A stretch of 64,000 nt of DNA from Rickettsiales bacterium (GCA_038123275.1 JAYORG010000002.1:10083-74082), one strand, 5' to 3'; positions 2,345 through 49,838 are shown, counted from the stretch's first letter. Numbers and translations are program-made. Notes: generated by a model from the sequence alone, not told the origin.

Positions 2345-3223
2345 ATGAAAATATTGAATATCTTCTTAGTTAAAATTTTATTTTTAGTTTTACTTTCAAA
2401 ATCTCTCCTAGCTCAAACTAGCCAAGTTAATATTTACGAAAAAGATGGTTGGCGTTATATTGAGTCCAATGGTATTACCAATCATGATACTGGTAATTTT
2501 CCAAATTCAGGAAATCCTCATTCAATTTCTACGCAAGATTATAAATATAAAGTGACATTAAATCCGCAATTTTCAGAAAAAATTACAAAATTACAAAGAC
2601 AGCCTTTTGGAGTTGCTTTAAATGGAGTTCCTTTTGATCCAGCTACGGCAGAATTTTATAATAATGATCCAGATTCAGGTTTTAATGGTGAAGCTAAAGG
2701 TGGTTCTCGTAATTTAGGGCTAGATAACTCTAATGCTCATGTTCAGCCCAATGGCGCTTATCATTACCATGCTATTCCCTGGGGTTTAATAAAAGAATCT
2801 AATTCAAAAGATGATATAACTCTTATTGGCTATGCGGCAGATGGTTTTCCAATCTACTATTCTAATCATCATCAATCAAGCTACAGACTAAAAAATGGCT
2901 ACAGGCCTATTGCTGATAATGCACCAACTGGAAGGTATGATGGAACATACACTCAAGATTATGAATATATTAAAGGCTATGGCAATTTAGATGAATGTAA
3001 TGGTGTAAAATTATATACCAAGAAATATCCAAACAAAATTTATGCTTATTTTGTAACTGAAGAATTTCCTTTTGTACCAAGATGTTTTAAAGGCACACCA
3101 GATTCAACTTTTGCTAGCCATCATAAAGGAGATAGAAGACCAAGAGGAGATAGAAGACCAAGAGGAGATAGAAGAGGTTTTCATCATCATGGAAGGCCAC
3201 CGCCAATTCACCACGAATTTTAA
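2345..3223 (+). CDS. secreted YHYH-motif domain protein with Arg/His-rich repeat tail
   Basis: 292 aa; signal peptide ...SKSLLA/QT; HVQPNGAYHYHAIPWGL matches the YHYH protein family; C-terminus KGDRRPRGDRRPRGDRRGFHHHGRPPPIHHEF. Confidence 0.6.
   Translation: MKILNIFLVKILFLVLLSKSLLAQTSQVNIYEKDGWRYIESNGITNHDTGNFPNSGNPHSISTQDYKYKVTLNPQFSEKITKLQRQPFGVALNGVPFDPATAEFYNNDPDSGFNGEAKGGSRNLGLDNSNAHVQPNGAYHYHAIPWGLIKESNSKDDITLIGYAADGFPIYYSNHHQSSYRLKNGYRPIADNAPTGRYDGTYTQDYEYIKGYGNLDECNGVKLYTKKYPNKIYAYFVTEEFPFVPRCFKGTPDSTFASHHKGDRRPRGDRRPRGDRRGFHHHGRPPPIHHEF
3128..3176 (+). repeat. 18-bp in-frame tandem repeat (ggagatagaagaccaaga x2 plus a partial third) encoding GDRRPR units
   Basis: Read directly: units at 3128-3145 and 3146-3163, partial unit at 3164-3176. 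Confidence 0.9.
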
Positions 3224-3277
3224 GAGGCGTGGTGGTGACTCCCTCACTTAAATATTATATCACATTTATTAAGATAT

Positions 3278-3297
3278 AGCAAGTTAATTAACTTGCT
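3278..3297. terminator. perfect 20-bp palindrome between convergent genes (candidate bidirectional terminator)
   Basis: agcaagttaattaacttgct is its own reverse complement (8-bp stem, AAUU loop). It is followed by cttttaa on + and sits 3 nt before the argD stop on -. Confidence 0.45.
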
Positions 3298-3300
3298 CTT

Positions 3301-4479
3301 TTAACCTATTTTTAGCAAAGTTGCTCTTAATATATGAACTGCTTTTAATATTTCCTTCTTTTTTACTATCAAAGGCGGAATAAAGCGGATGGTATTATTA
3401 GCTGCTGGAATTGATAAAAGACCATAATTTTGCAATTCTTTTACTAGGTTTAAATTTTTATATTTCTTTTTTAATTCAACACCAACCATTAAGCCAATAC
3501 CTCTAATATCTTTTATAGTATCAGGAAATTCTTCTTTAAGCATGTTGAGCTCATCTTTTAATAATTGGCCATTATTTTGAACATTCTTTAAAAATCCTGC
3601 TTTTAATACAATATCAATAACTGTTTTAGTAACTTTCATAGCTAGAGGGTTGCCACCATATGTTGTGCCATGAGTTCCAGAATTCATGCCAGATGCTGCT
3701 TTTTTAGTAGCTAAGCATGCACCAACTGGAAATCCTCCGCCAATTCCTTTAGCAGAAGCAATGATGTCAGGCTTTATACCATAATATTCATAAGCATAGA
3801 AGTGTCCTGTACGACCAACTCCGCATTGCACTTCATCTAAGGCTAGTAGTAAGTCATTGTCATTTGCAAGTTTGCGTAAATCTTTCATAAATTGTTTATC
3901 AGCAGGAATAATTCCACCTTCACCTTGTATTGGTTCAATTAAGATACCGGCTGTTTTTTTGGTTATTAGCTTTTTAACAGAGTTAATTTCATTAAAATTG
4001 GCACTTTTAAAGCCCTCTAATTTTGGTCCAAAACCTTCTAGATATTGCTCATTATTAGAAGCTGAAATTGTAGCCATTGTGCGCCCGTGAAATGATCCTT
4101 TAAAGGTAATAATCTCATATCTATCTTTTTGTTTTTTATCATAAAAATATTTACGAATCATTTTAATTAAGCATTCGATTGCTTCAGCACCAGAATTGCA
4201 AAAGAAGGCATAATCAGCAAAGCTATTATCAGTCAAAACATTGGCTGATTCTTCTAATTCATTAATTTTATAAGCATTAGAGACATGCCATAATTTTCCA
4301 GCTTGTTTTCTTATTGCTTTTACTAATTTTGGATGACAATGTCCAAGTGTATTAACAGCAATTCCAGCACCAAAATCTAAATATTTTCTGCCATTATAAT
4401 CAAAAATATATACTCCTCTACCTTTCTTAAAAGCTATATCAAGACGCTTATGTATTGGTAAAATGTGAGATTTTTCCAT
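3301..4479 (-). CDS. argD: acetylornithine aminotransferase (class-III PLP aminotransferase)
   Basis: 392 aa; GAGIAVNTLGHCHP, FCNSGAEA, DEVQCGVGRTG, PLP-lysine context ASAKGIGGGFP, THGTTYGGNPLA. Confidence 0.85.
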   Translation of the reverse strand: MEKSHILPIHKRLDIAFKKGRGVYIFDYNGRKYLDFGAGIAVNTLGHCHPKLVKAIRKQAGKLWHVSNAYKINELEESANVLTDNSFADYAFFCNSGAEAIECLIKMIRKYFYDKKQKDRYEIITFKGSFHGRTMATISASNNEQYLEGFGPKLEGFKSANFNEINSVKKLITKKTAGILIEPIQGEGGIIPADKQFMKDLRKLANDNDLLLALDEVQCGVGRTGHFYAYEYYGIKPDIIASAKGIGGGFPVGACLATKKAASGMNSGTHGTTYGGNPLAMKVTKTVIDIVLKAGFLKNVQNNGQLLKDELNMLKEEFPDTIKDIRGIGLMVGVELKKKYKNLNLVKELQNYGLLSIPAANNTIRFIPPLIVKKKEILKAVHILRATLLKIG

Positions 4480-23312: not shown

Positions 23313-24284
23313 TTAATGTTCATAGCCTAATTTATCAATTTTTATTTCACATTTATTATCAATTAGGGTAACTAACTGATCAGTTTGATGGTTTTTTTCT
23401 AAATAGCCAATATTTGTTAAATTAATCCCTAATGTTTTAGATAAAATTGCAATTTTCTTACTATTTGCTTCATTAACGCTAAAAATTAATTCATAATCAT
23501 CACCAGCGCTGCATAATTCCATAATAGTAATATTTTTATTGTTCTTTAAAATGTTATTTGCTTCCTTTGAAAAAGGAATTTTATTTTTAAATATTGTAGC
23601 TTTCATATTAGAGCTTTTACAAATATGTTTTAAATCCAAGAATAACCCATCAGAGATATCGATAGCGCATTTTGATAGTTTTTGTTTTATTAATTCTTGT
23701 CCTAGCTTAATTCTTGGACTTGGTTTATAATATTTGGAGATTAAATATTCTTTATTTTGTGGAATTGAGTTTATTTGATTTTCTAGTATTTTTCTGCCTA
23801 AATATGCATCTCCTATATTTCCTGAAACAAATATTAAATCCTTATCAGCGGCATTTTTTCTAGATAATATATTTTTGTTTATTTCACCAAAGATTGTTAT
23901 GCTAAAAAATAGTTTATCTTTTGACTTTATGGTATCTCCACCAATTAAAGAAATATTAAATTCTTGGTTAATTTCTTTTAAAGCTTTACTAAAATTAGCC
24001 AGGAAGGCTTCATCAACATGATGATTTTTGCAAAATCCAAGCATGTAATATAAAGGTTTAGAGCCACTTGCGGCAATATCAGAAAGATTTGATCTAATTA
24101 ATCTATTGGCAATATTATAAGCACCATCTTCCTTATAAAAATGCACATCTTCAACTATAATATCTTTGCTTATGACAAGATTATTGTCCTTTATTATAGC
24201 TACGTCATCTTGTAGTTTTTGAGACTCTTTTATGTTGTTAGTTAATGGTTGGAAATACTTATCAATTAAGTTAAATTCATCCAT
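23313..24284 (-). CDS. thiL: thiamine-monophosphate kinase
   Basis: 323 aa; EDVHF, SNLSDIAASG, GGDT, AIDISDGL, AGDDYELIF. Confidence 0.85.
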   Translation of the reverse strand: MDEFNLIDKYFQPLTNNIKESQKLQDDVAIIKDNNLVISKDIIVEDVHFYKEDGAYNIANRLIRSNLSDIAASGSKPLYYMLGFCKNHHVDEAFLANFSKALKEINQEFNISLIGGDTIKSKDKLFFSITIFGEINKNILSRKNAADKDLIFVSGNIGDAYLGRKILENQINSIPQNKEYLISKYYKPSPRIKLGQELIKQKLSKCAIDISDGLFLDLKHICKSSNMKATIFKNKIPFSKEANNILKNNKNITIMELCSAGDDYELIFSVNEANSKKIAILSKTLGINLTNIGYLEKNHQTDQLVTLIDNKCEIKIDKLGYEH

Positions 24285-24287
24285 TAT

Positions 24288-24737
24288 CTATTTAATTTTA
24301 AAGTATTTATCTGCTGATATTTTTCCGCTACCATAGATAAAAATAGTAGATAGCAAGAAGAGCCAATAGAAATGTTCAATATTTTGTATCACTAGAAATT
24401 GGATTGTAAGTGTCATAACTATTAAAGGTATAACTGCAAATCTACTTAAAAGACCTAATGCTAAAAGTACAGGGCAAACTAACTCAAAGAATGTACCAAT
24501 ATAAGCTGCAAAAACAGGAGATATCAAAGGTAAGTCATATTCATACTCAAACAGATAAATAGCATTATCAATGTTGGCGAATTTATTTCTACCACTTTTA
24601 AAAAAGATATTAGCCATCCATAGCCTACAGGATAATAACAATATAGATGCAAAATAGTCTTCTATTACATTAAAAAACTTGTTATTAGATTTTGTGATTA
24701 ATCTTGTAATTTTCTTGGTACTAATCATTTTTAACAT
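24288..24737 (-). CDS. DoxX-family membrane protein (last gene of the MNIO/bufferin-like operon)
   Basis: 149 aa; 4 TM; LLLSCRLWMANIFFKSGRNKF matches the DoxX N-terminal pattern; overlaps the upstream DUF2063 gene. Confidence 0.7.
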   Translation of the reverse strand: MLKMISTKKITRLITKSNNKFFNVIEDYFASILLLSCRLWMANIFFKSGRNKFANIDNAIYLFEYEYDLPLISPVFAAYIGTFFELVCPVLLALGLLSRFAVIPLIVMTLTIQFLVIQNIEHFYWLFLLSTIFIYGSGKISADKYFKIK

Positions 24738-25476
24738 TGAAATTGGTTATTATTTTGCAAGAGACAAACTTATTTATTAAAGATCCTATATCAAAATCTT
24801 CTTTATTTAAGCTTAAAGTTTCATGAATTTGGTAAATATTCTTCTTCTCTTCAATCATTTTTAGAAAACCATACTCAGCCTTTGCTAAATTATGAATATT
24901 AACCTTAAAAGATGATCCTTCAATGATAATAAATTGGCCTTTTTTTTCTTCAAGATTAATTTTATCTTTAGACCATATTGAATAGATTGGATATTTTGAA
25001 GCAATTAAATAACATGAAGGGTGTAAATTAAAGTATAGAGACATAAAGTCATCTTCACTTAAAGATTGTAATTTTTTAATGTCAATTGGCTTTGCATCTT
25101 TACTAAAGTAAGATAAATTGTAAAACCATTCCAAGTTAGCAAGATCAGTTAAGTAAGGTAATTTATGTTCTTTTTCTAAGCTTTTAATAAATTTTGGAAA
25201 ATATTGTCCATAATCTTCTAAATTTCCGCTTTTAGAATGATATTTATGATGATACTGCTTTATTATCTTATAAAAATAATCATCTCCTACGATATTTTTG
25301 GTGGATTCATAAGTTAGTGATAAGGAATCATCAAAGCTGCTAAATATATTATTTCGATAAATATCCATCCTTTGTCTAATGTCTATTTTGCTAGAATTAA
25401 TCTTAGAAAATATTTTTAAGTTATTTTGATTATAAATATGATTAGCAAACTGCTCTTGTAGGTCTGATAGATTCAT
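24721..25476 (-). CDS. DUF2063-family protein (MNIO partner, BufC-like)
   Basis: 251 aa; LQEQFANHIY...MDIYRNNIFSSFDDSLSLTYESTKNIVGDDYF matches the DUF2063 N-terminal consensus (vYRNn...L...fP....lvG...F). Confidence 0.65.
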   Translation of the reverse strand: MNLSDLQEQFANHIYNQNNLKIFSKINSSKIDIRQRMDIYRNNIFSSFDDSLSLTYESTKNIVGDDYFYKIIKQYHHKYHSKSGNLEDYGQYFPKFIKSLEKEHKLPYLTDLANLEWFYNLSYFSKDAKPIDIKKLQSLSEDDFMSLYFNLHPSCYLIASKYPIYSIWSKDKINLEEKKGQFIIIEGSSFKVNIHNLAKAEYGFLKMIEEKKNIYQIHETLSLNKEDFDIGSLINKFVSCKIITNFNVKND

Positions 25477-26311
25477 TATTTATTATTAGTTGTTCTGCCT
25501 TTTTGGCTTCATTTAATAAATTTTCGATAGATGGTAGATCTTGATCCCACTCTATTAATGATGGTGAATTAAATTTTTTAATAGCAATTTTATAAAGATC
25601 CCAAACTTCATCGCAAACATAATTATCATGTGTATCAATTAAAATTATATTACCATCAATATTGGACTTGCTATGTCCAGCTAAATGTATTTCTTTAACT
25701 ATTTGCGGGTTAATATTATTAATATAAGAAATAGGGTCAAATTTATTATTATAAGAGCTGACATAAATATTGTTGATATCAAGTAATATTTTGCATCCAG
25801 TTTTATTTGCTACTTGGTTAATGAAATCATCTTCTGCAATTTCTGATTCTTTAAAACTTAGGTAGGTTGATGGATTTTCAACCAGAATTTCTTTTTTAAG
25901 AAAATCTTGCACTTGTGATATATTGCTACATAAAGCTTCTAGAGATTCTTTGGTATAAGGTAGTGGAAGTAGGTCGTTTAAAACCTGATTTTTAATATTA
26001 CTCCATGATATATGATCAGAAATTAAAAATGGATCACAAAATTCAACTAGTTTTTTAAGTTTTTGTAAGTGAGTTTGGTCAATTTTTTGAGCTGAACCAA
26101 GTGATAGGCCAACACCATGTAAGCTTAAGGGATAACTTTCTCTAATTTTTTTTAAAAAGCCAAGAGACGGACCGCCATCGGCAAAGAAATTTTCACTATG
26201 AACTTCAAGCCAAGGAATATTTGGCTTATTTTTTAATATATAATCGTGGTGAGGGTGTCTTAAACCAATCCCAACTGCAGTAGTTGAGATTGGTTTTTTA
26301 ATTTTAAACAC
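25442..26311 (-). CDS. DUF692 / MNIO-family (multinuclear non-heme iron oxidative) RiPP-modifying enzyme (BufB-like)
   Basis: 289 aa; VGIGLRHPHHDYIL, WLEVHSENFF, YPLSLHGVGLSLGS, ISDHISW, VENPSTYL, IHLAGHS, LIEWD. Confidence 0.8.
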   Translation of the reverse strand: MFKIKKPISTTAVGIGLRHPHHDYILKNKPNIPWLEVHSENFFADGGPSLGFLKKIRESYPLSLHGVGLSLGSAQKIDQTHLQKLKKLVEFCDPFLISDHISWSNIKNQVLNDLLPLPYTKESLEALCSNISQVQDFLKKEILVENPSTYLSFKESEIAEDDFINQVANKTGCKILLDINNIYVSSYNNKFDPISYINNINPQIVKEIHLAGHSKSNIDGNIILIDTHDNYVCDEVWDLYKIAIKKFNSPSLIEWDQDLPSIENLLNEAKKAEQLIINNESIRPTRAVC

Positions 26312-26333
26312 TTAGAAATATGAATAAAATTGA

Positions 26334-26516
26334 TTACTTTTTTTTGCTATGGCAGCCATTACTTCCACAGCTATGTTTGCCAGATTTCTTGCTTTTGCAA
26401 GAATTTTTTCCACCACATTTATGAGATCCATCTTTAGCGCCAAACATTGAACAAGCAGAAGTTAGAGTAATAAGAGCAACACCAGTTGCTACTGATTTTA
26501 AAAAATTAGTTTTCAT
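26334..26516 (-). CDS. small exported Cys/His/Lys-rich peptide (candidate second RiPP precursor)
   Basis: 60 aa: MKTNFLKSVATGVALITLTSACSMFGAKDGSHKCGGKNSCKSKKSGKHSCGSNGCHSKKK. Its signal peptide aligns with that of the adjacent DUF2282 peptide, and GKHSC is shared. It sits between the precursor and the MNIO gene. Confidence 0.5.
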   Translation of the reverse strand: MKTNFLKSVATGVALITLTSACSMFGAKDGSHKCGGKNSCKSKKSGKHSCGSNGCHSKKK

Positions 26517-26565
26517 AATAAATTTAATTTTAGATTAATAAAAAAGTATAAGTAGTGGTATTTTC

Positions 26566-26820
26566 TTAACCTAAAATGCCATTGACAATTTTTGTACAAG
26601 TGCCTTTAGGTAGTAAAACCCATTCATTTTTATCTCCATCTTTAGTTGCTCCACCAGCACAAGAATGTTTACCTTGTTTGTCGCTGCAATCATTTTGACC
26701 AGCTTTAACAACTCCATAACATTTTTCCATTTTTTTAGATTTAGCTTGTGCTTCCAATGTTATTAGAGAAATAGCACCAACACCAAGAATTACAGATGAT
26801 AAAAAAGTTTTTTTGTTCAT
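26566..26820 (-). CDS. DUF2282-family exported peptide (BufA1/bufferin-type precursor)
   Basis: 84 aa; signal peptide ...LEAQA/KS; core EKCYGVVKAGQNDCSDKQGKHSCAGGATKDGDKNEWVLLPKGTC with the four conserved Cys. Confidence 0.75.
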   Translation of the reverse strand: MNKKTFLSSVILGVGAISLITLEAQAKSKKMEKCYGVVKAGQNDCSDKQGKHSCAGGATKDGDKNEWVLLPKGTCTKIVNGILG

Positions 26821-26867: not shown

Positions 26868-26895
26868 AATCTAAAATCATAATTATTTTTGTCAA
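26868..26895 (-). promoter_or_regulatory. candidate sigma70-type promoter of the bufferin-like operon
   Basis: On the minus strand: TTGACA (26895-26890), 16-nt spacer, TAGATT (26873-26868); about 45 nt upstream of the precursor ATG. Confidence 0.3.
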
Positions 26896-31083: not shown

Positions 31084-32511
31084 ATGGCAGCAAAAGATGA
31101 AAGAAATAATATAGATCCAGAAGCTCAATTAGAAGAAATATTAATTAGGGCTATGAAAAATGGCGACCTAGGAGAGTTAGAAGGATTATTGGATTCAGAT
31201 AAGGTTAAAGGTAATCCGGTAATTTTTAATAAATTATTACAAAAATCTGAGGAATTAACACAAGATGGAAAGCTTAAACCTGGTGATAATCTTTTAAAGA
31301 TAAGAAAGTTAATGTCTAGCAGAGCTAAGGAATTGGTGGATGCTATGGATAGTAAAAATAACGATCTTAGTGACAAGGCTAAGAAGTCTCTAGAGTCTTT
31401 AAGAGGTACTTTAGATAAATTTAATGAAAAATCTGAGTTAATTAAGGAGCAAGTCCAATCAAAAAAATCTTCTAGCTCCAAGCCAAAGCGTGAAGAAAAA
31501 AGAAGCCAAGGAGCTAAAGAAATAACAAAAAATGAAAAATTTCTTCAGGCTGTTAAAGATGGTAAAGTTGGTGAGGCAGCAAAATTATTAGGTGAGGGTG
31601 CTGATGTTAATTGTAGAGATAAAAATGGAAAATCAGCATTGCAAATTGCCAATGATATGGGTCATGAGGAGATGGCTGATTATTTAACTAGTATTACATC
31701 TCAAAATGCAGCTCCCAAATGGTCTGGCATAAGAATGATGGGTGAATCAAAATCTAGTCAAGGTGGTGTAAATTTAATTGGTTCAGCAAGTCAGCGTCAA
31801 AGTATAATTGATGCGCAGCTAGAAAAACAATCTTTAATGGCTCAAAAGGCTCAAGATACAAAGGAAATAATGGATCGATTAGAGATGGAATATCAAGAAG
31901 GCCTAAAAAAGATGAGTCATTTTAAACCAGGAGAAGTTAAAAATGATTGGGTATATGGTCAAAATTTGGAAGAAAATAATGAGTTTTCATACTATAATCC
32001 ATACACAGAGGAAGTAGATACAATTACAATAGATCAAGATGTTGCAGAGGTGGTAAATTTATTAAATGATTTACCAGAATCTAAAAAAGAAGAAGCTTTA
32101 TCAAGTATATCTGGTGATGTTCATAATCAAGGTGAAAAAATTTGTAGTCAATTTCTTGCTCAAGCTATTAGAGAGGGCAATGTAACATTAATTGCTGCCA
32201 TAATGGCACAGCCTGATTTTGATGTTAATCAAAGTAGCGGTAGTTATAGCCTATATCAAATTGCTAAATCTTCGGGTAATGAATTTATTCTATCTTTGTT
32301 AGAATCCAAGGGTGCTAGAACACAAGAGCATAATTCTGTTAGTAATAAAGATGCAAAAATAGATAGTGAATTATCTCCATCTCTTGAAAATGATAAAGTT
32401 AAAGAAGTTCCCAAGGTTAATATTGATCCTGATCCAGGAACTAAAATTATTCCTATTAGCAATGAGACTTTAGCAGAAAGACAGCATAATTCTAGTAGGG
32501 GTGGTAATTAG
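31084..32511 (+). CDS. ankyrin-repeat protein (candidate host-directed effector)
   Basis: 475 aa, no signal peptide; ANK units FLQAVKDGKVGEAAKLLGEGADVNCRDKNGKSALQIANDMGHEEMADYL and AIREGNVTLIAAIMAQPDFDVNQ...YQIAKSSGNEFILSLLESKGA; charged coiled regions. Confidence 0.6.
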   Translation: MAAKDERNNIDPEAQLEEILIRAMKNGDLGELEGLLDSDKVKGNPVIFNKLLQKSEELTQDGKLKPGDNLLKIRKLMSSRAKELVDAMDSKNNDLSDKAKKSLESLRGTLDKFNEKSELIKEQVQSKKSSSSKPKREEKRSQGAKEITKNEKFLQAVKDGKVGEAAKLLGEGADVNCRDKNGKSALQIANDMGHEEMADYLTSITSQNAAPKWSGIRMMGESKSSQGGVNLIGSASQRQSIIDAQLEKQSLMAQKAQDTKEIMDRLEMEYQEGLKKMSHFKPGEVKNDWVYGQNLEENNEFSYYNPYTEEVDTITIDQDVAEVVNLLNDLPESKKEEALSSISGDVHNQGEKICSQFLAQAIREGNVTLIAAIMAQPDFDVNQSSGSYSLYQIAKSSGNEFILSLLESKGARTQEHNSVSNKDAKIDSELSPSLENDKVKEVPKVNIDPDPGTKIIPISNETLAERQHNSSRGGN

Positions 32512-34242: not shown

Positions 34243-35262
34243 TTAATAGCATTCATATTCAACAGGTTCCCATTGGCCATTTAGGCCACATTTTCTTCTA
34301 GGGTAAAGAAAATTATCTGGATTATCACTATAACATCCATACTCACTACAATCAATATTGCCTTGCGTGGTTTCGCCATAATATGCTGCTGGAAATTCAA
34401 TTTCTTCTCCAGAACAGCTATCATTATAAGATGATGTTTCTTCAGGGCAAACAGTAATATTAAAGCCACCAATTTCTTGAACTAATGTCTCTCTGGTATT
34501 GTAAGCTATTAAATCATCAAAGTCACTACCTCCAGAATTGACAACAAAGACATTATCAAATATATCGCCACCAGATACTCCAGTTGGTGCGTTATTTTCT
34601 TCATCTGTATCACTACTTGAGCCATTTTGAGTTGAGCCGCTATTAATATTAAAGGCTCTATAGCCATTTGATCCATGACTAATAAGTGCATAGGTAGCAA
34701 CAGTAGTAATGCTTGAACCAGGTTGACCAGATATTGTTTCTTGAATTGTAATAGGATCTACGCTAGATGTAGCATCCATATTTGTTCCTTCAAATCCTGA
34801 TGCACCACCGCTGGCAAAAACTTCTGTTAATTGTTTAGGAACTACATAAGAAAATTTATTATCAAATCCATCTCCTAAATATTCTAGGTTAAGACCTAAA
34901 GCTTTAACAGGAACTGCGCCATAAACTAGGCCCTCATTAGCATTACTATTTGTTGAGGTTAGTACACCAGTTGCAGTACAATCTCCAGCACTTCCAGCTT
35001 CTGCTCCATAGGTAGAATCAGTTGTGATATCATGTAAAGATGCTGGGCAGGGTAATCTTTTATAGGTGTAAACAAAAACATTTAAGGCTTTTTGAATGAC
35101 TGCCATTTTATCTTTAGTAGATTTAGCTTTGGCATTTTTAAGGGCGCTTGTAGAAGCTGTTACAGCTCCAGAAATTATAACTGAAATAATAGCTAAAACA
35201 ATGGATAATTCAATTAAGCTAAATGCTGATTTTCTGGTTTTTGTGATGGTATTGATAGTCAT
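34243..35262 (-). CDS. large type IV pilin-like protein, paralog 1 (prepilin-type N-terminus, Cys-rich C-terminal module)
   Basis: 339 aa; basic leader MTINTITKTRKSA then FSLIELSIVLAIISVIISG (Phe+1, Glu+5, hydrophobic helix); conserved RLPCPASLHDITTD; 8 Cys; C-terminal RKCGLNGQWEPVEYEC. Confidence 0.7.
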   Translation of the reverse strand: MTINTITKTRKSAFSLIELSIVLAIISVIISGAVTASTSALKNAKAKSTKDKMAVIQKALNVFVYTYKRLPCPASLHDITTDSTYGAEAGSAGDCTATGVLTSTNSNANEGLVYGAVPVKALGLNLEYLGDGFDNKFSYVVPKQLTEVFASGGASGFEGTNMDATSSVDPITIQETISGQPGSSITTVATYALISHGSNGYRAFNINSGSTQNGSSSDTDEENNAPTGVSGGDIFDNVFVVNSGGSDFDDLIAYNTRETLVQEIGGFNITVCPEETSSYNDSCSGEEIEFPAAYYGETTQGNIDCSEYGCYSDNPDNFLYPRRKCGLNGQWEPVEYECY

Positions 35263-35336
35263 TAGATTTAGTAGGTTTTTTTAATTCATCTTTGCTTTGA
35301 AGTTTTAAGCATAGTTCACATACAAAGCTTCGCATC

Positions 35337-35365
35337 ATTTATGCTGTTATTTATGCTTTTGTCAA
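35337..35365 (-). promoter_or_regulatory. candidate promoter for pilin-like paralog 1
   Basis: Minus strand: TTGACA (35365-35360), 17-nt spacer, ATAAAT (35342-35337), within the 131-bp spacer between paralogs 2 and 1. Confidence 0.25.
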
Positions 35366-35393
35366 GAATTATTAGATATTGTTTGTTGATTAT

Positions 35394-36401
35394 CTAGATG
35401 CACCCATCTATAGCAGATTCCCATTGACCATTTAGGCCACATTTTCTAGTAGCAGTGCCACTTGAACATCCAGCTATTGATGCACAAGTTTCATTGCTAT
35501 TTACATTTGTAGTTCCATCGTAGTATCTTGCCGGAAATGTTAATCCATTACCTGAAGTTAAGCATCCTGGGCTAAAGTCAGAAGTTTCTGTTGTGCAAAC
35601 GGTTGTGCTAAAACCTCCAATATCTTTGACTATGAGTTCTCTGGTGCTGTAAACTACAATATCATCAAAACCAGAATCATTAGAACTTGTAATAAAAGTT
35701 TTGTCAAATATGTCACCGCCAGATACTCCAGTTGGTGAATTATCCTCTTCATCTGTACTGGTAGAAGATCCATTTTGAATGGATCCACTATTAATATTAA
35801 AAGCTCTAAAACCATTTGGTCCATGACTTAAAACAACATAGGCACCAATAAGAGTTGTAATAGTTCCAGTAGATCTTATTTCTATGGGATCTAAATTAAC
35901 AGTATCAGACATGTCTGCCCCCTCAAAGCCTACAGCACCACCATTAACAAAAGTTTCGGTTAGTTGTTGAGGTACTATATAGGAAAATTTATTATCAAAT
36001 GCATCTCCCATGAGCTCAATATCTAGACCCAGATCTTTAACAGGAACTGCTCCATAAATTAGGCCATCATTAGCGGCTGTATTTGTTGAAGTTAAAGCTC
36101 CAGTAGCAGTACAAGTCCCAGATGTTCCTGCTTCTGTTCCATATGCAGTATCGGTTGTTATATCATGCAAAGATGCTGGGCAGGGTAGCCTTTTATTGTT
36201 ATACACAAAAATATGTAAAGCATGTTGGATGGTTTTTATTCTATCTTTTGTTATTTTAATTTTAGCATTTTTGATGTTATTTGTAGACACACTAATATAT
36301 CCAGAAATAATAATGGCAATAATGGCCATTATAACTGATAATTCAATAAAGCTAAATGCTGATTTTTTCCTTTTTTGAATTTTATTGCTGTTATTTAGCA
36401 T
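35394..36401 (-). CDS. large type IV pilin-like protein, paralog 2
   Basis: 335 aa; leader ...KRKKSA then FSFIELSVIMAIIAIIISG; same RLPCPASLHDITTD core; C-terminal RKCGLNGQWESAIDGC. Confidence 0.7.
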   Translation of the reverse strand: MLNNSNKIQKRKKSAFSFIELSVIMAIIAIIISGYISVSTNNIKNAKIKITKDRIKTIQHALHIFVYNNKRLPCPASLHDITTDTAYGTEAGTSGTCTATGALTSTNTAANDGLIYGAVPVKDLGLDIELMGDAFDNKFSYIVPQQLTETFVNGGAVGFEGADMSDTVNLDPIEIRSTGTITTLIGAYVVLSHGPNGFRAFNINSGSIQNGSSTSTDEEDNSPTGVSGGDIFDKTFITSSNDSGFDDIVVYSTRELIVKDIGGFSTTVCTTETSDFSPGCLTSGNGLTFPARYYDGTTNVNSNETCASIAGCSSGTATRKCGLNGQWESAIDGCI

Positions 36402-36416
36402 TTTATTAGATTTTAT

Positions 36417-37442
36417 TTAAGAACATCCATCTATTGCTGGTTCCCATTGGCCATTTAAGCCACATTTTCTAGTTGTAGTACCGCTTGAACACCCTGTAAT
36501 TGAGGCGCAAGTTTCGTTGCTACCTACATTTGTGGTTCCATCGTAATAGCTTACAGGAAATGTTAAACCACTACCTGAAGTAAGACATCCTGGACTAAAG
36601 TCAGAAGTTTCAGTGGTGCAAGCAGTAATGTTAAAGCCGCCAATTTCTCTAACAAGAGTTTCTCTAATATTGTAAACAACAATATCATCAAAATCAGCAC
36701 TTCCAGAGCTTTTGATAAATATATTGTCAAATATATCGCCACCAGATACTCCAGTTGGTGCATTATCTTCTTCATCTGTATCGCTACTTGAGCTATTTTG
36801 AGTTGAGCCGCTATTAATATTAAATGCTCTTAGGCCATCTGGTCCGTGACTTAGAACAACATAGACTGCATTTGTAGTGATGTTTGAGCCAGAAGATACA
36901 GTTTCTCTAATTGTAATAGGGTCAACATTAGCTGTATCAGTCATGTCTGTTCCTTCAAAGCCATCAGCTGAGCCAGAAACAAAAGCCTCTGTAACTTGTT
37001 GTGGTACTATGTAAGAGAACTTATTATCAAAGGCATCTCCTAGCATTTCAATATCTAAACCCAAAGCTTTTACAGGAACTGCGCCATAAACTAAGCCATC
37101 ATTAGCAGCTGTATTTGTTGAAGTTAAAATACCAGTAGCAGTGCAAGTCCCAGCCGTTCCAGCTTCTGTTCCATATGCTGTGTCGGTTGTTATATCATGC
37201 AATGATGCTGGGCAGGGCAATCTTTTATTAGTATATACAAAGACCCCTAAGGCTTTTTTGATAATTTCTATTCTTTCTTTTGTTGTTTTAATTTTGGCAT
37301 TTTTTATGGCACTTGTAGAAACTGTAATAGAGCTAGAAATTATAATAGCAATAATTGCTAAAACAATTGATAACTCAATTAAGCTAAATGCTGATTTGTT
37401 TCCCTTTTTTTTTGAGGTTTTATTAGACATTATTATTAGCAA
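36417..37442 (-). CDS. large type IV pilin-like protein, paralog 3
   Basis: 341 aa; leader ...KKGNKSA then FSLIELSIVLAIIAIIISS; mostly identical to paralog 2 by eye; only 15 nt upstream of paralog 2. Confidence 0.7.
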   Translation of the reverse strand: MLIIMSNKTSKKKGNKSAFSLIELSIVLAIIAIIISSSITVSTSAIKNAKIKTTKERIEIIKKALGVFVYTNKRLPCPASLHDITTDTAYGTEAGTAGTCTATGILTSTNTAANDGLVYGAVPVKALGLDIEMLGDAFDNKFSYIVPQQVTEAFVSGSADGFEGTDMTDTANVDPITIRETVSSGSNITTNAVYVVLSHGPDGLRAFNINSGSTQNSSSSDTDEEDNAPTGVSGGDIFDNIFIKSSGSADFDDIVVYNIRETLVREIGGFNITACTTETSDFSPGCLTSGSGLTFPVSYYDGTTNVGSNETCASITGCSSGTTTRKCGLNGQWEPAIDGCS

Positions 37443-37542: not shown

Positions 37543-38175
37543 GTGTCACATAATAACATTATTGATATAAACTCTTATAAAAATAAAGGAAATAAAAAGA
37601 TGATAATTGTAATATCTTTAGCAGCTGCAATTTTTGCAATTTTTGCCTTCAATACAATATCTAATTATAATAAATATTTGGCTTTTGAAATAGAGGAATC
37701 TAATAATATTTCTTATGATATTGATGATGTAAAAGATGTTACCCCTTTGGAAATAATTAATAATATTGAAAAAGCTGAAAGAGAGGATAATCCAATTTTA
37801 ATTTATTTTTATACAAGTTGGTGCAGAGTTTGTAAGAAACAATTACCTATTATAAATGAAATTGCACGTAAATTTCAAAATACTGATTTAGAGGTTATTT
37901 TTGTGGCAATTGATAAGAATATTACGCAACAAAAAACAATTGATGGTTTACAAAGTATTAAGGATATTTATTTTCAACCTAAATATTTAAGTGATAGAAA
38001 TGGTTTTAAGGATCTTTTAAAGACTAAATCAATAAAATTTAGGAATAGAATACCATTTTCAGTAATAATTGGTAGAAATTCGCAAATTATTACCCAATTT
38101 AGTGGTTATAAAAATTTTAAATATTTTGATAATAGAATTATGAAAGCATTATTTAGGGAAGATGAGGATATATAA
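37543..38175 (+). CDS. membrane-anchored thioredoxin-fold protein (TlpA/ResA-like)
   Basis: 210 aa from GTG 37543 (ATG at 37600 preceded by aaagga may be the true start); TM MIIVISLAAAIFAIFAF; CxxC in FYTSWCRVCKKQLP; divergent from the pilin-like triplet. Confidence 0.6.
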   Translation: MSHNNIIDINSYKNKGNKKMIIVISLAAAIFAIFAFNTISNYNKYLAFEIEESNNISYDIDDVKDVTPLEIINNIEKAEREDNPILIYFYTSWCRVCKKQLPIINEIARKFQNTDLEVIFVAIDKNITQQKTIDGLQSIKDIYFQPKYLSDRNGFKDLLKTKSIKFRNRIPFSVIIGRNSQIITQFSGYKNFKYFDNRIMKALFREDEDI

Positions 38176-41262: not shown

Positions 41263-43608
41263 TTACATGATAATACAATTATCAGGCTTTTCTAGACTTT
41301 TAAAGCCATGCCCCATTAAATAATCAACCATTGCATCACTACCGCTTTGAATAGCAATATCAAGATATGATGTTTTATTTATACTTGCTTTTGATATTGA
41401 GCTTTTGGGCTTTTTGTTAAAAGAATTTTTTTGATCTTTATGTTCTAATAGAGTTGTAATAGTTGGTTTTTTTTGTATATCAGGAAGTGACAATATTAAA
41501 ACTGGTATCATTCTTTTAATATTGTCTAGATTACCATTTTGTATGGTTTGTTTTAATAGAATTTCTTGATAAGCTGGTTTTAAAGATGCTAGAGCTTTAT
41601 TGGATATATTTAAAATAAAGGATGATGTTAGTATTTCATTATTTTGATTTATAATATGTCTTGCTGCTAAGTTAATACTTTCTTGATTTAAAGAATTGCT
41701 TCTTAGTAAAAATCCTAAACTTTCAGAATTTTCTGGAACTGCTATCAAACTAACAAAACCTTTTATATTAGGGTTAGCTCCAGATTTTATTAATAATTTT
41801 ATATTTCCCAAGTAGCATTTTCCTTGTACAGCACAAAATAAAGCACTTCTACCTTCTTTATCAACAAATTCATCAAGGAATTTAGCTAAAAATTTTGGAT
41901 TTGATTTTTCTTCTTGTGCTAGATTTTTTAAATAAGGTTCTAAATGTTCTGTGCCATGATTACTACATATATTATGTATATTTCCTAATTGTTCATTTAC
42001 TTCAACCAAATTAGATAATAGTGAGATATTTTTATGTTTGAACATTACCTTTGCAATAAAGGTATTCTTTTGTGCAAAATTAAATAACTTTTTTGCTAAC
42101 ACTGATCTTTCATTGTGGCATATCTGAGTAATTATCTCATCTAAAAATATTTTATCATCTGCTTTAAATGCTCCCCATTCTTTTTTCTCTAATAAGAAGT
42201 AAAATATTTTAGGGTCATTATGTATTATTGTTGTAAGTATATTTTTGTTATAGTCTATTTTGATATTGTATTGAGTACATAGATTTGCTAAAAAATTAAC
42301 TGACTTTAAGTATCGGCCATGTGAAACAGCAAGGTCAAAGGGGTTATTTTTATTATAATCTAGCTGTGATAGTAGTTGAATTATAATGTTGCTAACCCCA
42401 ATTTTAGATTCTTGGCCTGATTTTACTAAGTCTACTTCTAGGGTTTTAATATATTTTGAAAGTGCCTTTTCATTATGGCTATTTAAACAGGCATAAGAAA
42501 AGAAGTTATGACTATTTCTATCTATGGATAATGGATTAAAGCCATTTTCAATTAAAATTCCAATAGTTTTATTATATCTTTTAGATGTTGCATATTTTAA
42601 AAAATATATATTTTGTCTTAATCTATTTAAGTTTAGACTTATATTTTCACATTGTGTAAATATATCCCTTAGATAGGCATCACCATTATTAGAATTATCT
42701 TCAATAGCATTTCTTATTAAACTACCAACATATTTAAGCAGCATTCTTTTAGCTCTTAATAATTCTCTTTTGGTATTATCTTCTTCTGGAAATAAATCTT
42801 CTGGTGTTGGAGGCATATTGCCAATTTTTTTGATCAGTAATGGTCTTAAATTTATGCCTTTTTCTTTGCATTTTGCAAAGATTAACATTAAATTTTCGTT
42901 GCTAGTATAAGTTATGGCTATATTTATTAAGAGATCGAGATATTCTATGGGTGTACTATTATTAATATTTTTTATGCTTAACTCAAATAATCTGTATATG
43001 TCTTTTTTTAATTTGCTTGTATCTCGATAGTCAAAATATTGAAAGGGGAATTCTTCCTTAATTCTAAAATAAAATCTTTCCTCATCACCTAAATATTCTT
43101 TGCTAATACAATAATAGGCTAATTTATGGTCATTTGCTATTTTAATAAAGATCATAGCCATGCTGGACAGAAAATTATTTTGCATGATATTTTCCTGCAT
43201 ATAATCATCTATGGCATCAAATATTGCCTTAATGTTATTTTGTGTTAGTATATTATGGGCTAGGCTAGCAGTAGTAGTCTTTTGATGATCTGCATTTTTA
43301 TTAACATCATTCCTATATAATTGCTCAAGGCGTAATAATTGTTGAGTTAATTTTCTTTGTTTTTCTAATTTTGGATTAACTACGACTTTAGGGCCAAAAG
43401 ATAGTCTTTCTAAGTCTATGGTACTTAAATCTAGATATTGCTCTTGATCTAGATAATCTGAAGAATCAGAGTCTGAATAGCTAGAATCTGCAAGAATATA
43501 GTTTTTAGGTTGATAATTTGAAGTATGAGGTTTTGTATATTTAGATTCTACTGCTTCAGGTTTTGGATTTTTAGATTTTGAAGTATTTTTTAATATTTCT
43601 TTTCTCAT
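41263..43608 (-). CDS. large ankyrin-repeat protein (candidate effector)
   Basis: 781 aa, no signal peptide; Ser/Asp/Tyr-rich N-terminus. ANK-like units include GRSALFCAVQGKCYLGNIKLLIKSGANPNIKG, NPFDLAVSHGRYLKSVNFLANL and SYLDIAIQSGSDAMVDYLMGHGF. Confidence 0.6.
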   Translation of the reverse strand: MRKEILKNTSKSKNPKPEAVESKYTKPHTSNYQPKNYILADSSYSDSDSSDYLDQEQYLDLSTIDLERLSFGPKVVVNPKLEKQRKLTQQLLRLEQLYRNDVNKNADHQKTTTASLAHNILTQNNIKAIFDAIDDYMQENIMQNNFLSSMAMIFIKIANDHKLAYYCISKEYLGDEERFYFRIKEEFPFQYFDYRDTSKLKKDIYRLFELSIKNINNSTPIEYLDLLINIAITYTSNENLMLIFAKCKEKGINLRPLLIKKIGNMPPTPEDLFPEEDNTKRELLRAKRMLLKYVGSLIRNAIEDNSNNGDAYLRDIFTQCENISLNLNRLRQNIYFLKYATSKRYNKTIGILIENGFNPLSIDRNSHNFFSYACLNSHNEKALSKYIKTLEVDLVKSGQESKIGVSNIIIQLLSQLDYNKNNPFDLAVSHGRYLKSVNFLANLCTQYNIKIDYNKNILTTIIHNDPKIFYFLLEKKEWGAFKADDKIFLDEIITQICHNERSVLAKKLFNFAQKNTFIAKVMFKHKNISLLSNLVEVNEQLGNIHNICSNHGTEHLEPYLKNLAQEEKSNPKFLAKFLDEFVDKEGRSALFCAVQGKCYLGNIKLLIKSGANPNIKGFVSLIAVPENSESLGFLLRSNSLNQESINLAARHIINQNNEILTSSFILNISNKALASLKPAYQEILLKQTIQNGNLDNIKRMIPVLILSLPDIQKKPTITTLLEHKDQKNSFNKKPKSSISKASINKTSYLDIAIQSGSDAMVDYLMGHGFKSLEKPDNCIIM

Positions 43609-48808: not shown

Positions 48809-49261
48809 ATGGATAAATTTAAAAAATTACAACTAGATTTACTAGACAAAAAGTTTATTAAATTTAAAGAAATTAACCTTCCTAAAAAGGGCTGGATAAA
48901 TACTGTGCGCACTTCTTTGTCAATGACATTAGAGCAATTAGCAAAAAGGCTAGGGGTAAGCACTTCAGCGGTTTCTCAGTTTGAGCAAAGTGAAATACAA
49001 GAAAATATTAGCTTACAAACACTACAAAAAGTTGCCAACGCTATGAATTGCAAATTAAGCTATGTTTTTATCCCAAATAATAAATCATTTCATAGTATCA
49101 TTAAAGACCAAGCGCGTAAAAAAGCCAAAGAAATGGTCAAAGATGTTAATGATTCCATGGCTCTAGAAAATCACAAGGTTAAAAATAATACTGATTCCGT
49201 AAAATCTTTAACAAAAGAACTTTTAAAAGACTACAATTCAAAAATATGGTCAGATGATTAA
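48809..49261 (+). CDS. XRE-family HTH protein ('mobile mystery protein A' type)
   Basis: 150 aa; GWINTVRTSLSMTLEQLAKRLGVSTSAVSQFEQSE helix-turn-helix; 8-nt overlap with the downstream Fic gene, as in the mob_myst_A/B pair. Confidence 0.65.
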   Translation: MDKFKKLQLDLLDKKFIKFKEINLPKKGWINTVRTSLSMTLEQLAKRLGVSTSAVSQFEQSEIQENISLQTLQKVANAMNCKLSYVFIPNNKSFHSIIKDQARKKAKEMVKDVNDSMALENHKVKNNTDSVKSLTKELLKDYNSKIWSDD

Positions 49262-49838
49262 TTACATTTACAAAGAGGGTCAAACCCCCATAAACGAAGA
49301 TGAAAAGAATGACTTAATCCCAGAACTTAGCACCCAAGAAGAACTAAATAAATGGGAGCAAGAAAATATTCTTGAAGCACAAAAATGGCTTTTAGGAAAA
49401 TCTCTAACAAAAAGTAATATTTTTGATTCAACTTTCCTCAAAGAGCTTCACAATAAAATGTTTAACAAAACATGGAGATGGGCTGGAACTTACAGAAAAA
49501 CCAATAAAAATATTGGTTGCAAATTTTATCAAATAGACGCTCAAGTTAAAGAATTAAAAGGTGATACTACATTTTGGCTACAAAACAAAACCTACAGTAT
49601 TAAACAACTAGCTTTAGTCTATCACCATCGCCTAGTAAAAATTCACCTATTTCCCAACGGCAACGGCCGCCATTCTCGCCTTATGGCAGATTTAATCATA
49701 AAAAAATACCAAGGACAAAATCTAGAATGGCAAAACAAAAACTTTAAATCCTTTGACGATTTCAGAAAAGAATACATCTCATCCTTAAGAAAAGCCGATC
49801 ACTGCAACTACCAAAATCTATTCAATCTATTTGATTAA
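49254..49838 (+). CDS. Fic-domain protein ('mobile mystery protein B' type)
   Basis: 194 aa; Fic active-site motif HLFPNGNGRHSRL (HxFx[D/E/N]GNGRxxR). Confidence 0.8.
   Translation: MINYIYKEGQTPINEDEKNDLIPELSTQEELNKWEQENILEAQKWLLGKSLTKSNIFDSTFLKELHNKMFNKTWRWAGTYRKTNKNIGCKFYQIDAQVKELKGDTTFWLQNKTYSIKQLALVYHHRLVKIHLFPNGNGRHSRLMADLIIKKYQGQNLEWQNKNFKSFDDFRKEYISSLRKADHCNYQNLFNLFD

Follow-up and report, generated by a model that had tools for sequence, protein, structure and literature searches.

The 64,000-nt stretch of DNA examined here (Rickettsiales bacterium, GCA_038123275.1 JAYORG010000002.1:10083-74082; hereafter the window) carries, at 24288-26820, a compact operon of the type that encodes bufferins, which are peptides made on the ribosome that undergo post-translational modification (RiPPs). 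All coordinates refer to the whole window, and the genome content of the source organism is known from these 64 kb. Five co-directional open reading frames (ORFs) lie on the minus strand, each where an earlier note on this DNA had placed it. They are bufA1 (26566..26820), encoding an 84-aa DUF2282 bufferin-1 precursor; a gene at 26334..26516 for a 60-aa Cys-rich, lipobox-bearing peptide, here called PEP, a putative mini-precursor of no curated family; bufB (25442..26311, GTG start), encoding a 289-aa MNIO (DUF692) maturase; bufC (24721..25476), encoding a 251-aa PME1-type partner (DUF2063); and bufD/doxX (24288..24737), encoding a 149-aa DoxX-family membrane protein. In operon order, the first two junctions are gaps of 49 and 22 nt and the last two are overlaps of 35 and 17 nt, as previously described, and the motifs listed at that time (EKCYGVVKAGQNDC, GKHSCAGG, KGTC, HSENFF, LHGVGLSLGS, and IHLAGHS) are all present.

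Gene content and family membership

The translated genes were compared with curated family models. BufA1 scored 88.1 bits against PF10048 (DUF2282; cut-off 22.4) and covered positions 1-51 of the 53 in that profile. BufB scored 335.9 bits against PF05114 (MNIO; cut-off 25) and 372.1 bits against NF050167, the NCBIfam MNIO_BufB equivalog model (cut-off 310), and its 223 bits against the NCBIfam HvfB model lay under the cut-off of 360. BufC reached 69.6 bits against PF09836 (DUF2063; cut-off 27.2) and DoxX reached 59.4 bits against PF07681 (cut-off 23.6). Of the five proteins for which the earlier note had proposed profile hidden Markov model (HMM) searches, these four exceed the curated family cut-offs, and PEP does not match any curated model. 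The set of precursor, MNIO, DUF2063 protein, and DoxX is the canonical core of bufferin clusters (PMC12452194), and bufferins have been named captophorins by the Mitchell group (PMC13097082). Judged by these matches, the locus is a bufferin/gig-type RiPP operon belonging to a known and widespread family, and its first description as bufferin-like agrees with both the curated models and the literature (PMC11626156, PMC12452194, PMC13097082).

The criteria for a signal peptide were Lys residues in the n-region and a hydrophobic core, together with an AXA site or agreement with a PROSITE-like lipobox rule. Both BufA1 and PEP have the n-region Lys and the hydrophobic core, followed by an AXA site or a lipobox; the BufA1 signal is of the Sec/signal peptidase I type, ending in EAQA before KSKK. 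The four Cys of BufA1 noticed previously (C34, C45, C54, and C75) are invariant in 26 homologues, the closest of which are up to 82% identical. In characterized Buf1 peptides, the outer Cys pair forms a disulfide and the central two Cys are modified to thiooxazoles (PMC11626156, PMC12452194). An AlphaFold2 model of medium confidence (core predicted local distance difference test score, pLDDT, 61-85) places C34 on a strand (31-35) and C75 on a helix (74-77), and this predicted topology matches the published Buf1 fold.

The best sequence match of BufB in the PDB was 3BWW; PDB sequence searches with BufC and with BufA1 returned no match. The BufB alignment of the clade described below revealed that the motifs HSEN, LHG, SDH, VEN, LDINN, HLAGH, DTH, and EWD are invariant. 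The AlphaFold2 model of BufC (pLDDT 85) has a helical domain at the N-terminus and, at the C-terminus, a beta3-alpha3 domain resembling a RiPP recognition element (RRE), an architecture shared by bufferin partner proteins (PMC11626156, PMC12452194). A Foldseek search of the PDB with this model gave 3DEE (NGO1945, the PME1 of Neisseria gonorrhoeae) as the top match (E 6.2e-4), with TglI (8hi7_A) next and, after it, TbiB1 and PqqD as weak RRE matches. Six loci of the clade have DoxX and 4 lack it, and DoxX was dispensable for modification in Caulobacter (PMC11626156).

PEP and its association with one MNIO clade

The earlier note had treated the 60-aa peptide as an accessory Cys-rich product and had not remarked on its lipobox; the present results revealed that PEP is MNIO-proximal and defines a clade. 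Its signal peptide, MKTNFLKSVATGVALITLTSA, is followed by the lipobox Cys (C22), and the mature part reads CSMFGAKDGSHKCGGKNSCKSKKSGKHSCGSNGCHSKKK. When 1.84 billion cluster representatives were searched exhaustively with a profile, 45 relatives were found at E<=1e-3; homologues are 48-78% identical, and gene pairs have ratios of nonsynonymous to synonymous substitution rates (dN/dS) of 0.25-0.60. On this evidence of conservation, PEP is a real gene under purifying selection and not a chance ORF. The sole NCBIfam match, to CefA (E 0.25, 11 bits), was dismissed as chance.

The lipobox, L-T-S-A-C22, satisfies a PS51257-like PROSITE rule. C22 is invariant, and of 49 family members 47 obey the rule; a mis-called start accounts for one of the remaining two. 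The residue following the lipid-acceptor Cys (position +2) is Ser in 35 of the 47 and is never Asp, and by the Escherichia coli rule the family therefore lacks an inner-membrane retention signal. Beyond the lipobox Cys, the PEP of the window has four Cys (family mature parts, 2-7; median, 4). The mature parts are rich in Lys, Ser, and Ala, with 25% Lys; Lys precedes 48% of the core Cys, and Gly, Ser, or Ala follows 68% of them. This context of Lys before and a small residue after the Cys resembles the substrate preferences measured for FonBC (PMC13097082). In the close family, H32, K33, C34, N38, C40, and C50 are invariant.

The PEP core was further compared with those of known precursors. A core-only profile comparison with Buf2-type cores gave an hhalign probability of 92.8% (E 4e-7), aligning HKCGGKNSCK...HSC-GSNGC of PEP with H-x-CKGQN-x-CKG...CKGQGGC of the Buf2 type. 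PEP relatives scored 16-30 bits against the BufA2 model NF050166, which is below its threshold of 60, and the PEP of one relative (locus L036) passed the HvfA-domain model NF050137 (25.4 bits vs 19.5). The PEP of the window lies outside Buf2/BufA2, which is defined by at least 60 bits against NF050166 together with six or twelve Cys, and outside HvfA/oxazolin, with no EGKCG repeat and no match to NF050188 or NF050137; it does carry the lipobox that is one criterion for DAG-RiPPs, the lipid-anchored MNIO-modified peptides. By curated definition, PEP is thus in neither the Cys-Lys (Buf2) nor the Lys-Cys (EGKCG) precursor group, and its sequence places it between the two. The likeness of the cores suggests that PEP may work like, and derive from, BufA2.

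The resemblances to either group are partial. PEP shares with Buf2 the core HKCGGKNSCK (vs H-x-CKGQN-x-CK), a Sec-type signal, a possible lipobox, and a BufB-type MNIO; approximately 16% of Buf2 precursors (BufA2, Buf_6/12Cys, or 'Cys-Lys') are predicted lipoproteins (PMC12452194, PMC13097082). Unlike Buf2, which has a conserved 6 or 12 Cys, PEP has 4 (2-7 in its family) and is short, rich in Lys, Ser, and Ala, and probably unstructured. It is similar to the Lys-Cys captophorins (oxazolin/HvfA, fontiphorin, and gonophorin) in its HKC-G/S/A context, which parallels EGKCG (PMC11252979, PMC13097082), but differs from them in having no EGKCG 5-mer repeats and in being paired with a BufB-type, not an HvfB-type, MNIO. 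A lipobox precursor, NedA of lipo-NedABC, has been demonstrated to be both MNIO-modified and triacylated (PMC13056109).

To describe the genomic association, 114 loci collected from GTDB representative genomes, a metagenome scan, and exact-protein look-ups were classified with purpose-built HMMs, and clade membership was set at an MNIO score of at least 430 bits against the clade profile, which gave 15 distinct loci. In 14 of the 15, the MNIO gene has a PEP-family ORF as its immediate upstream neighbour. In the fifteenth, L062, the MNIO gene abuts an exonuclease-like gene before it, and the missing PEP is a loss and not an annotation miss. By comparison, 58 canonical loci have BufA1 as the only precursor. 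In a neighbor-joining tree, the PEP-linked MNIOs are monophyletic (100/100 bootstraps), and the dual-precursor loci (the window, L031, L033, L035, and L036) form a subclade within them (100/100). BufA1 occurs in or near the locus in 6 of the 15 loci; it is just downstream and convergent in L041, and it is an orphan following thiD in L032 and L034. Identities of the window proteins to those of PEP-only loci were 56-57% for BufB, 39-41% for BufC, and 45% for DoxX, compared with 47-48% for BufB and 25% for BufC in DUF2282-only Oleispira loci; the best BufB match in representative genome contigs was 48% identical.

Two related groups of loci were also observed. In a sister MNIO clade, the MNIO is preceded by two-Cys signal-peptide peptides, at 3234-3458 (+) in L042 and at 3163-3450 (+) in L046; these peptides, ...SSCGGSECGGS... 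and ...GGCAPGHCSS..., may be further uncatalogued precursor types. Many environmental chlamydiae (L005-L025, loci from Chlamydiota metagenome-assembled genomes) possess BufB-type MNIO-BufC pairs, and their precursors are Buf2-like (CKGQNxCKGQGGCK), very Cys-rich (up to 19 Cys), or of the lipobox type.

The MNIOs of the clade also share a residue at a site relevant to substrate choice. In FonB, Asp249 is the proposed catalytic base and the next residue shapes the Cys context that is accepted (PMC13097082); Lys-Cys enzymes carry Phe at this position, Cys-Lys enzymes carry Asp, and no residue is conserved there in enzymes acting on DUF2282 (PMC13097082). Alignment to 3BWW (ERDF) located the two positions at D256-Q257 in the window BufB. 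The results revealed EWDQ in 13 of 14 PEP-linked MNIOs, in contrast to EWD[T/S/A] in the canonical BufA1 MNIOs, from which the window enzyme is also separated by clade. The chlamydial Cys-Lys-type MNIOs have EWDD, reproducing the published rule and serving as an internal control; the Gln of the PEP-linked enzyme also differs from that Asp. Compared with the Lys-Cys structure 3BWW, the window BufB has R-H (R18-H19) in place of R-R and D-Q in place of D-F, and both this Arg and this Phe are reported to be conserved (PMC13097082). We infer that the PEP-clade MNIOs represent a distinct specificity subtype.

The signal peptides of the two precursors are alike (MKTNFLKSVATGVALITL... in PEP and MNKKTFLSSVILGVGAISL... 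in BufA1). A profile built from the first 24 residues of 14 PEP proteins scored 8.4-17.1 bits on the BufA1 of dual loci, compared with at most 8.2 bits (median, -1.7) on 64 canonical BufA1. The window and 13 clade loci together supplied 983 N-termini; when these were ranked, seven clade BufA1 followed PEP as the best (8.5-19.6 bits), and the best unrelated N-terminus scored 3.6 bits. Composition alone does not explain the likeness, which would fit either common descent of the 5' ends or joint recognition by BufBC. The Lille group has reported preliminary evidence that the recognition sequence includes the signal peptide (PMC12452194).

One maturase pair and two candidate precursors

These findings suggest that the locus is probably a two-precursor bufferin (captophorin-type) operon, in which a single maturase pair serves a soluble BufA1 and a lipid-anchored, BufA2-like PEP; PEP is accordingly proposed as a second, lipid-anchored substrate of BufBC. 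The scheme that follows takes its thiooxazole chemistry, the modification and lipidation of PEP, and the localization, metal, and regulation from characterized homologues. BufB, an iron enzyme, would act in the cytoplasm together with BufC, its DUF2063/RRE partner, to oxidize selected Cys to 5-thiooxazoles, with a shift of -4 Da each. The expected sites in BufA1 are C45 and C54, and the candidate sites in PEP lie in the contexts HKC-G, NSC-K, HSC-G, and NGC-H. Both precursors would be exported by Sec, and their similar signal peptides may double as the BufBC recognition element. BufA1 would then be cut by signal peptidase I, acquire a C34-C75 disulfide, and act as a soluble periplasmic metal buffer. 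PEP would enter the lipoprotein pathway (Lgt, LspA, and Lnt) at Cys22 and, with Ser at +2, would probably be sorted to the outer membrane, where its Lys-rich tail, tethered by the lipid, would bind metal. Copper in the periplasm would be buffered by BufA1 and PEP jointly. The conserved sigma-70-like promoter described below would drive the operon, with read-through into the following gene, thiL.

A more specific version of this model is possible, and we advance it tentatively. In that version, one BufB/BufC pair reads a shared leader-like Sec signal on two unrelated cores and produces a two-tier metal buffer consisting of soluble BufA1 and an outer-membrane thiooxazole lipopeptide. The operon would be a lineage-specific buf1/buf2 hybrid with an MNIO subclade that has its own specificity residue (Gln257), and it would be fixed beside thiL in uncultured, probably host-associated Rickettsiales-like bacteria as a basal defence against host-imposed copper.

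Several points weigh against the two-precursor reading. The PEP of the window matches no curated precursor model, and those for BufA2 and HvfA gave no hit even at E<=10. Its core is of low complexity (K, S, A, C, G, and N), and the hhalign and HMM statistics may flatter it. Small non-RiPP lipoproteins occur inside bufferin clusters (PMC13056109), and the adjacency of PEP to the MNIO gene is therefore no proof in itself. The locus counts apply among the loci listed, which are phylogenetically related and not independent samples. BufC scored 61 bits against the NCBIfam HvfC equivalog model, under its cut-off of 142, and DoxX scored 56.5 bits against the HvfX equivalog model, under its cut-off of 80. 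The Sec signal was dispensable for modification under over-expression in Caulobacter (PMC11626156), which weakens the idea of a shared leader; the signal likeness could reflect duplication, that is, common descent, and no shared recognition, and the same-genome control N-termini hold few other secreted proteins. Finally, no copper-efflux or copper-oxidase family was found among the window proteins scanned, and the copper role thus has no local support.

The last of these points bears on a reading that retains the same chemistry but assigns it another role, namely the handling of a soft metal (Zn, Hg, Au, or Ag), protection with DoxX against redox or sulfur stress, or the supply of copper to the cuproenzymes of a host-associated bacterium. 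MerC-bufferin fusions and the induction of homologues by gold or other metals are known (PMC12452194, PMC11626156), oxidative and sulfur stress are countered by homologues of DoxX (PMC12452194), the window proteins scanned include no copper-resistance gene, and the operon of L030 lies approximately 2 kb from cbb3 oxidase genes. Nevertheless, the characterized members (Buf1, Buf2, fontiphorin, oxazolin, and MmrA) all bind and protect against copper (PMC11626156, PMC13097082, PMC13056109), and nothing at the locus points to another metal. We consider such a role unlikely.

It is rather improbable that the locus is a canonical Buf1 operon only, with BufA1 as the sole BufBC substrate and the 60-aa ORF encoding an unmodified accessory or a thiol-based metal-binding lipoprotein. 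The BufA1-BufB-BufC-DoxX order is the textbook buf1 core (PMC11626156, PMC12452194), PEP fails every curated precursor model, and the non-RiPP lipoproteins documented within bufferin clusters include LptM-like and BON-domain proteins (PMC13056109). However, in 9 clade loci PEP is the sole precursor-like gene beside the MNIO-BufC pair, with no DUF2282 gene found by HMM or tblastn. Its conservation extends beyond the lipobox to the core Cys motifs (H32, K33, C34, N38, C40, and C50), the core resembles Buf2 and HvfA motifs, and the selectivity site carries a residue particular to this MNIO clade.

Equally doubtful is the converse, that PEP is the only true substrate and the DUF2282 gene a hitch-hiking orphan whose product is unmodified or is matured by an MNIO elsewhere: the MNIO-proximal precursor, universal in the clade, is PEP and not BufA1, BufA1 stands away from any MNIO in L032 and L034, orphan Buf1 genes are generally common (PMC12452194), and the clade MNIO departs from canonical BufA1 enzymes at the selectivity site, but BufA1 retains its four Cys and an 88-bit family signature, has close homologues throughout the clade, heads the operon behind a conserved promoter in a well-supported five-locus subclade, and has a signal peptide that specifically resembles that of PEP. 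Moreover, DUF2282 without an MNIO is very rare (21/4072 genomes; PMC12452194), and MNIOs acting on DUF2282 are little conserved at the selectivity site in any case (PMC13097082).

The two-precursor operon was further compared with characterized systems. Like buf1ABCD of Caulobacter vibrioides and gig of Cupriavidus metallidurans and Legionella pneumophila, it has the same gene order and a DUF2282 precursor with a Sec signal and four Cys (PMC11626156); by homology, two 5-thiooxazoles, one disulfide, and periplasmic copper binding would be expected (PMC11626156). In contrast to these systems, the window has a lipobox peptide gene between bufA1 and bufB and no nearby sigF/nrsF, and thiL follows its operon immediately. 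Caulobacter has one BufB/BufC pair for buf1 and another for buf2; in the window, a single pair is linked to both precursor types. Tandem precursors and hundreds of unclassified signal-peptide Cys peptides upstream of MNIO genes have already been noted (PMC13056109, PMC12452194). As far as we found, three features are apparently undescribed: a defined PEP family that goes with a single MNIO clade, a recurrent heterotypic BufA1 and PEP operon with a single maturase pair, and a signal peptide shared by BufA1 and PEP. The PEP sequence was not found in the searchable parts of the landscape-survey supplements, and individual sequences may have been listed previously.

Bufferins are among the most widespread RiPP systems and have been linked to copper tolerance and virulence. 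How MNIOs and their partners choose substrates, and whether the Sec signal peptide has a role in recognition, are open questions in the field (PMC12452194, PMC13097082). With two dissimilar precursors, near-identical signals, one maturase pair, and a clade-specific site residue, the locus is a compact natural test case. If the two-precursor reading is correct, DAG-RiPPs would extend to a minimal peptide of approximately 38 residues in Rickettsiales. The practical significance is probably modest, the operon being a variant of a known family with chemistry taken from homologues.

Promoter, gene neighbourhood, and organism

A promoter-like element is present on the minus strand where the earlier note had placed a TTGACA-type promoter (26868-26895), and the assignment is backed by conservation in 10 of 14 related loci. 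It consists of TTGACA, a 16-nt spacer, and TAGATT (26895..26868), and its -10 hexamer ends 47 nt before the bufA1 ATG. With 10 of 12 consensus matches, it has the top score in the region, which it shares with two intragenic sites, and a loose promoter scan gave 42 sites in the region against 48.6 expected, that is, no excess over chance. The strict pattern TTGAC[AT]-N16/17-TAnnnT, in contrast, has one match in the 64-kb window, upstream of the operon, and 12 in the 336,760 strand-bases of the window and clade loci. For ten of these 12, the first precursor gene starts 46-73 nt farther downstream, and the flanking genes differ between these loci; in L031, the corresponding place, 38 nt before the ATG, is occupied by TTGATT-16-TAGATT. 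The conserved element is a good phylogenetic footprint for a predicted promoter. Its single strict match in 64 kb was observed in addition; the typical promoters of the organism presumably differ from it, or the operon is unusually strongly promoted.

Two other regulatory candidates were rejected. A MerR/CueR-type promoter was discounted on its spacer of 16-17 nt; MerR-type promoters typically have a spacer of 19-20 nt. A terminator-like hairpin at 26490..26475 lies within the signal-peptide coding region of PEP and has a poor T-tract, and was not accepted as an attenuator. An Rfam scan of the whole window yielded no family at threshold and no riboswitch, small RNA, tRNA, or rRNA. No sigma or anti-sigma genes (sigF/nrsF) lie near the operon, in agreement with the first description of the locus, and this is not unusual for the family; such genes occur in part of the Buf1 clusters and in none of the Buf2 clusters (PMC12452194). 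Because the housekeeping gene thiL follows immediately, transcription at no less than a basal level is likely, unless thiL is served separately by the internal promoter-like site given below; the operon may be expressed constitutively, as suggested previously.

The thiL gene (23313..24284, minus strand) encodes a thiamine-phosphate kinase and begins after a gap of 3 nt from doxX; priA ends 115 nt upstream of the operon. The housekeeping neighbours are as described before, with priA upstream and thiL-hemF-purC-purS-purQ-pyrG downstream, and the same gene string occurs in two independent assemblies (L001 and L002). G+C is 25-30% and uniform over the region, which gives no sign of a recently acquired island. 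In 7 clade loci (the window, L030, L031, L033, L037, L038, and L040), thiL adjoins the buf genes downstream, and in L033 the order is thiD-bufA1-PEP-bufB-bufC-thiL; the operon appears to be embedded between thiamine-salvage genes. Probably, thiL is co-transcribed with the buf genes, and an internal promoter-like site at 24527..24498 could serve it independently. A role of thiL as a PurM-superfamily tailoring enzyme was rejected, since the protein passes the equivalog model TIGR01379 (263 bits; cut-off 184); it is a housekeeping neighbour and not a tailoring enzyme of the operon.

The related contigs are labelled Rickettsiales bacterium, with one labelled Pseudomonadota bacterium. The system had been called rare in a streamlined genome. 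It is indeed uncommon, but it is not unique and recurs in many uncultured Rickettsiales-like contigs; likewise, the DNA is AT-rich, but on the 64-kb sample the genome is not extremely reduced. MNIO-PME1 clusters were reported to be depleted in Rickettsiales reference genomes (PMC13097082), and the present clade demonstrates that they exist in uncultured relatives. Two ankyrin proteins, at 31084-32511 (+) and 41263-43608 (-), bear out the mention of such proteins in the earlier note (Ank_2/Ank_4 matches) and fit a host-associated lifestyle. Loci of relatives (L026-L029) lie near the type IV secretion system genes virB8, cagX/virB9, and trbI/virB10 and near genes for leucine-rich repeat proteins. 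The term Rickettsiales-like is based on the contig labels and on the secretion-system, leucine-rich repeat, and ankyrin genes that surround relatives.

The remainder of the window is mostly housekeeping (purine, glycine-cleavage, and ilvD/edd functions), with several further features. Three tandem paralogous ORFs at 34243-37442 (-), of 339, 335, and 341 aa and 58-76% identical, match nothing in Pfam or NCBIfam; their N-terminal sequences (...KSAFSLIELSIVLAII...) resemble type IV prepilin or pseudopilin signals, and their C-terminal parts are conserved and contain Cys. A 1009-aa ORF at 56402-59431 (+) likewise has no Pfam or NCBIfam match. At 48809-49838 (+), the gene for an HTH_3 (Xre-type) protein overlaps one for a Fic/DOC-domain protein, and the two may form a toxin-antitoxin or an effector pair. 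A YHYH-domain protein at 2345-3223 (+; PF14240, 199 bits) and a TlpA/ResA-like thioredoxin-fold protein at 37543-38175 (+) may both be exported and redox- or metal-related.

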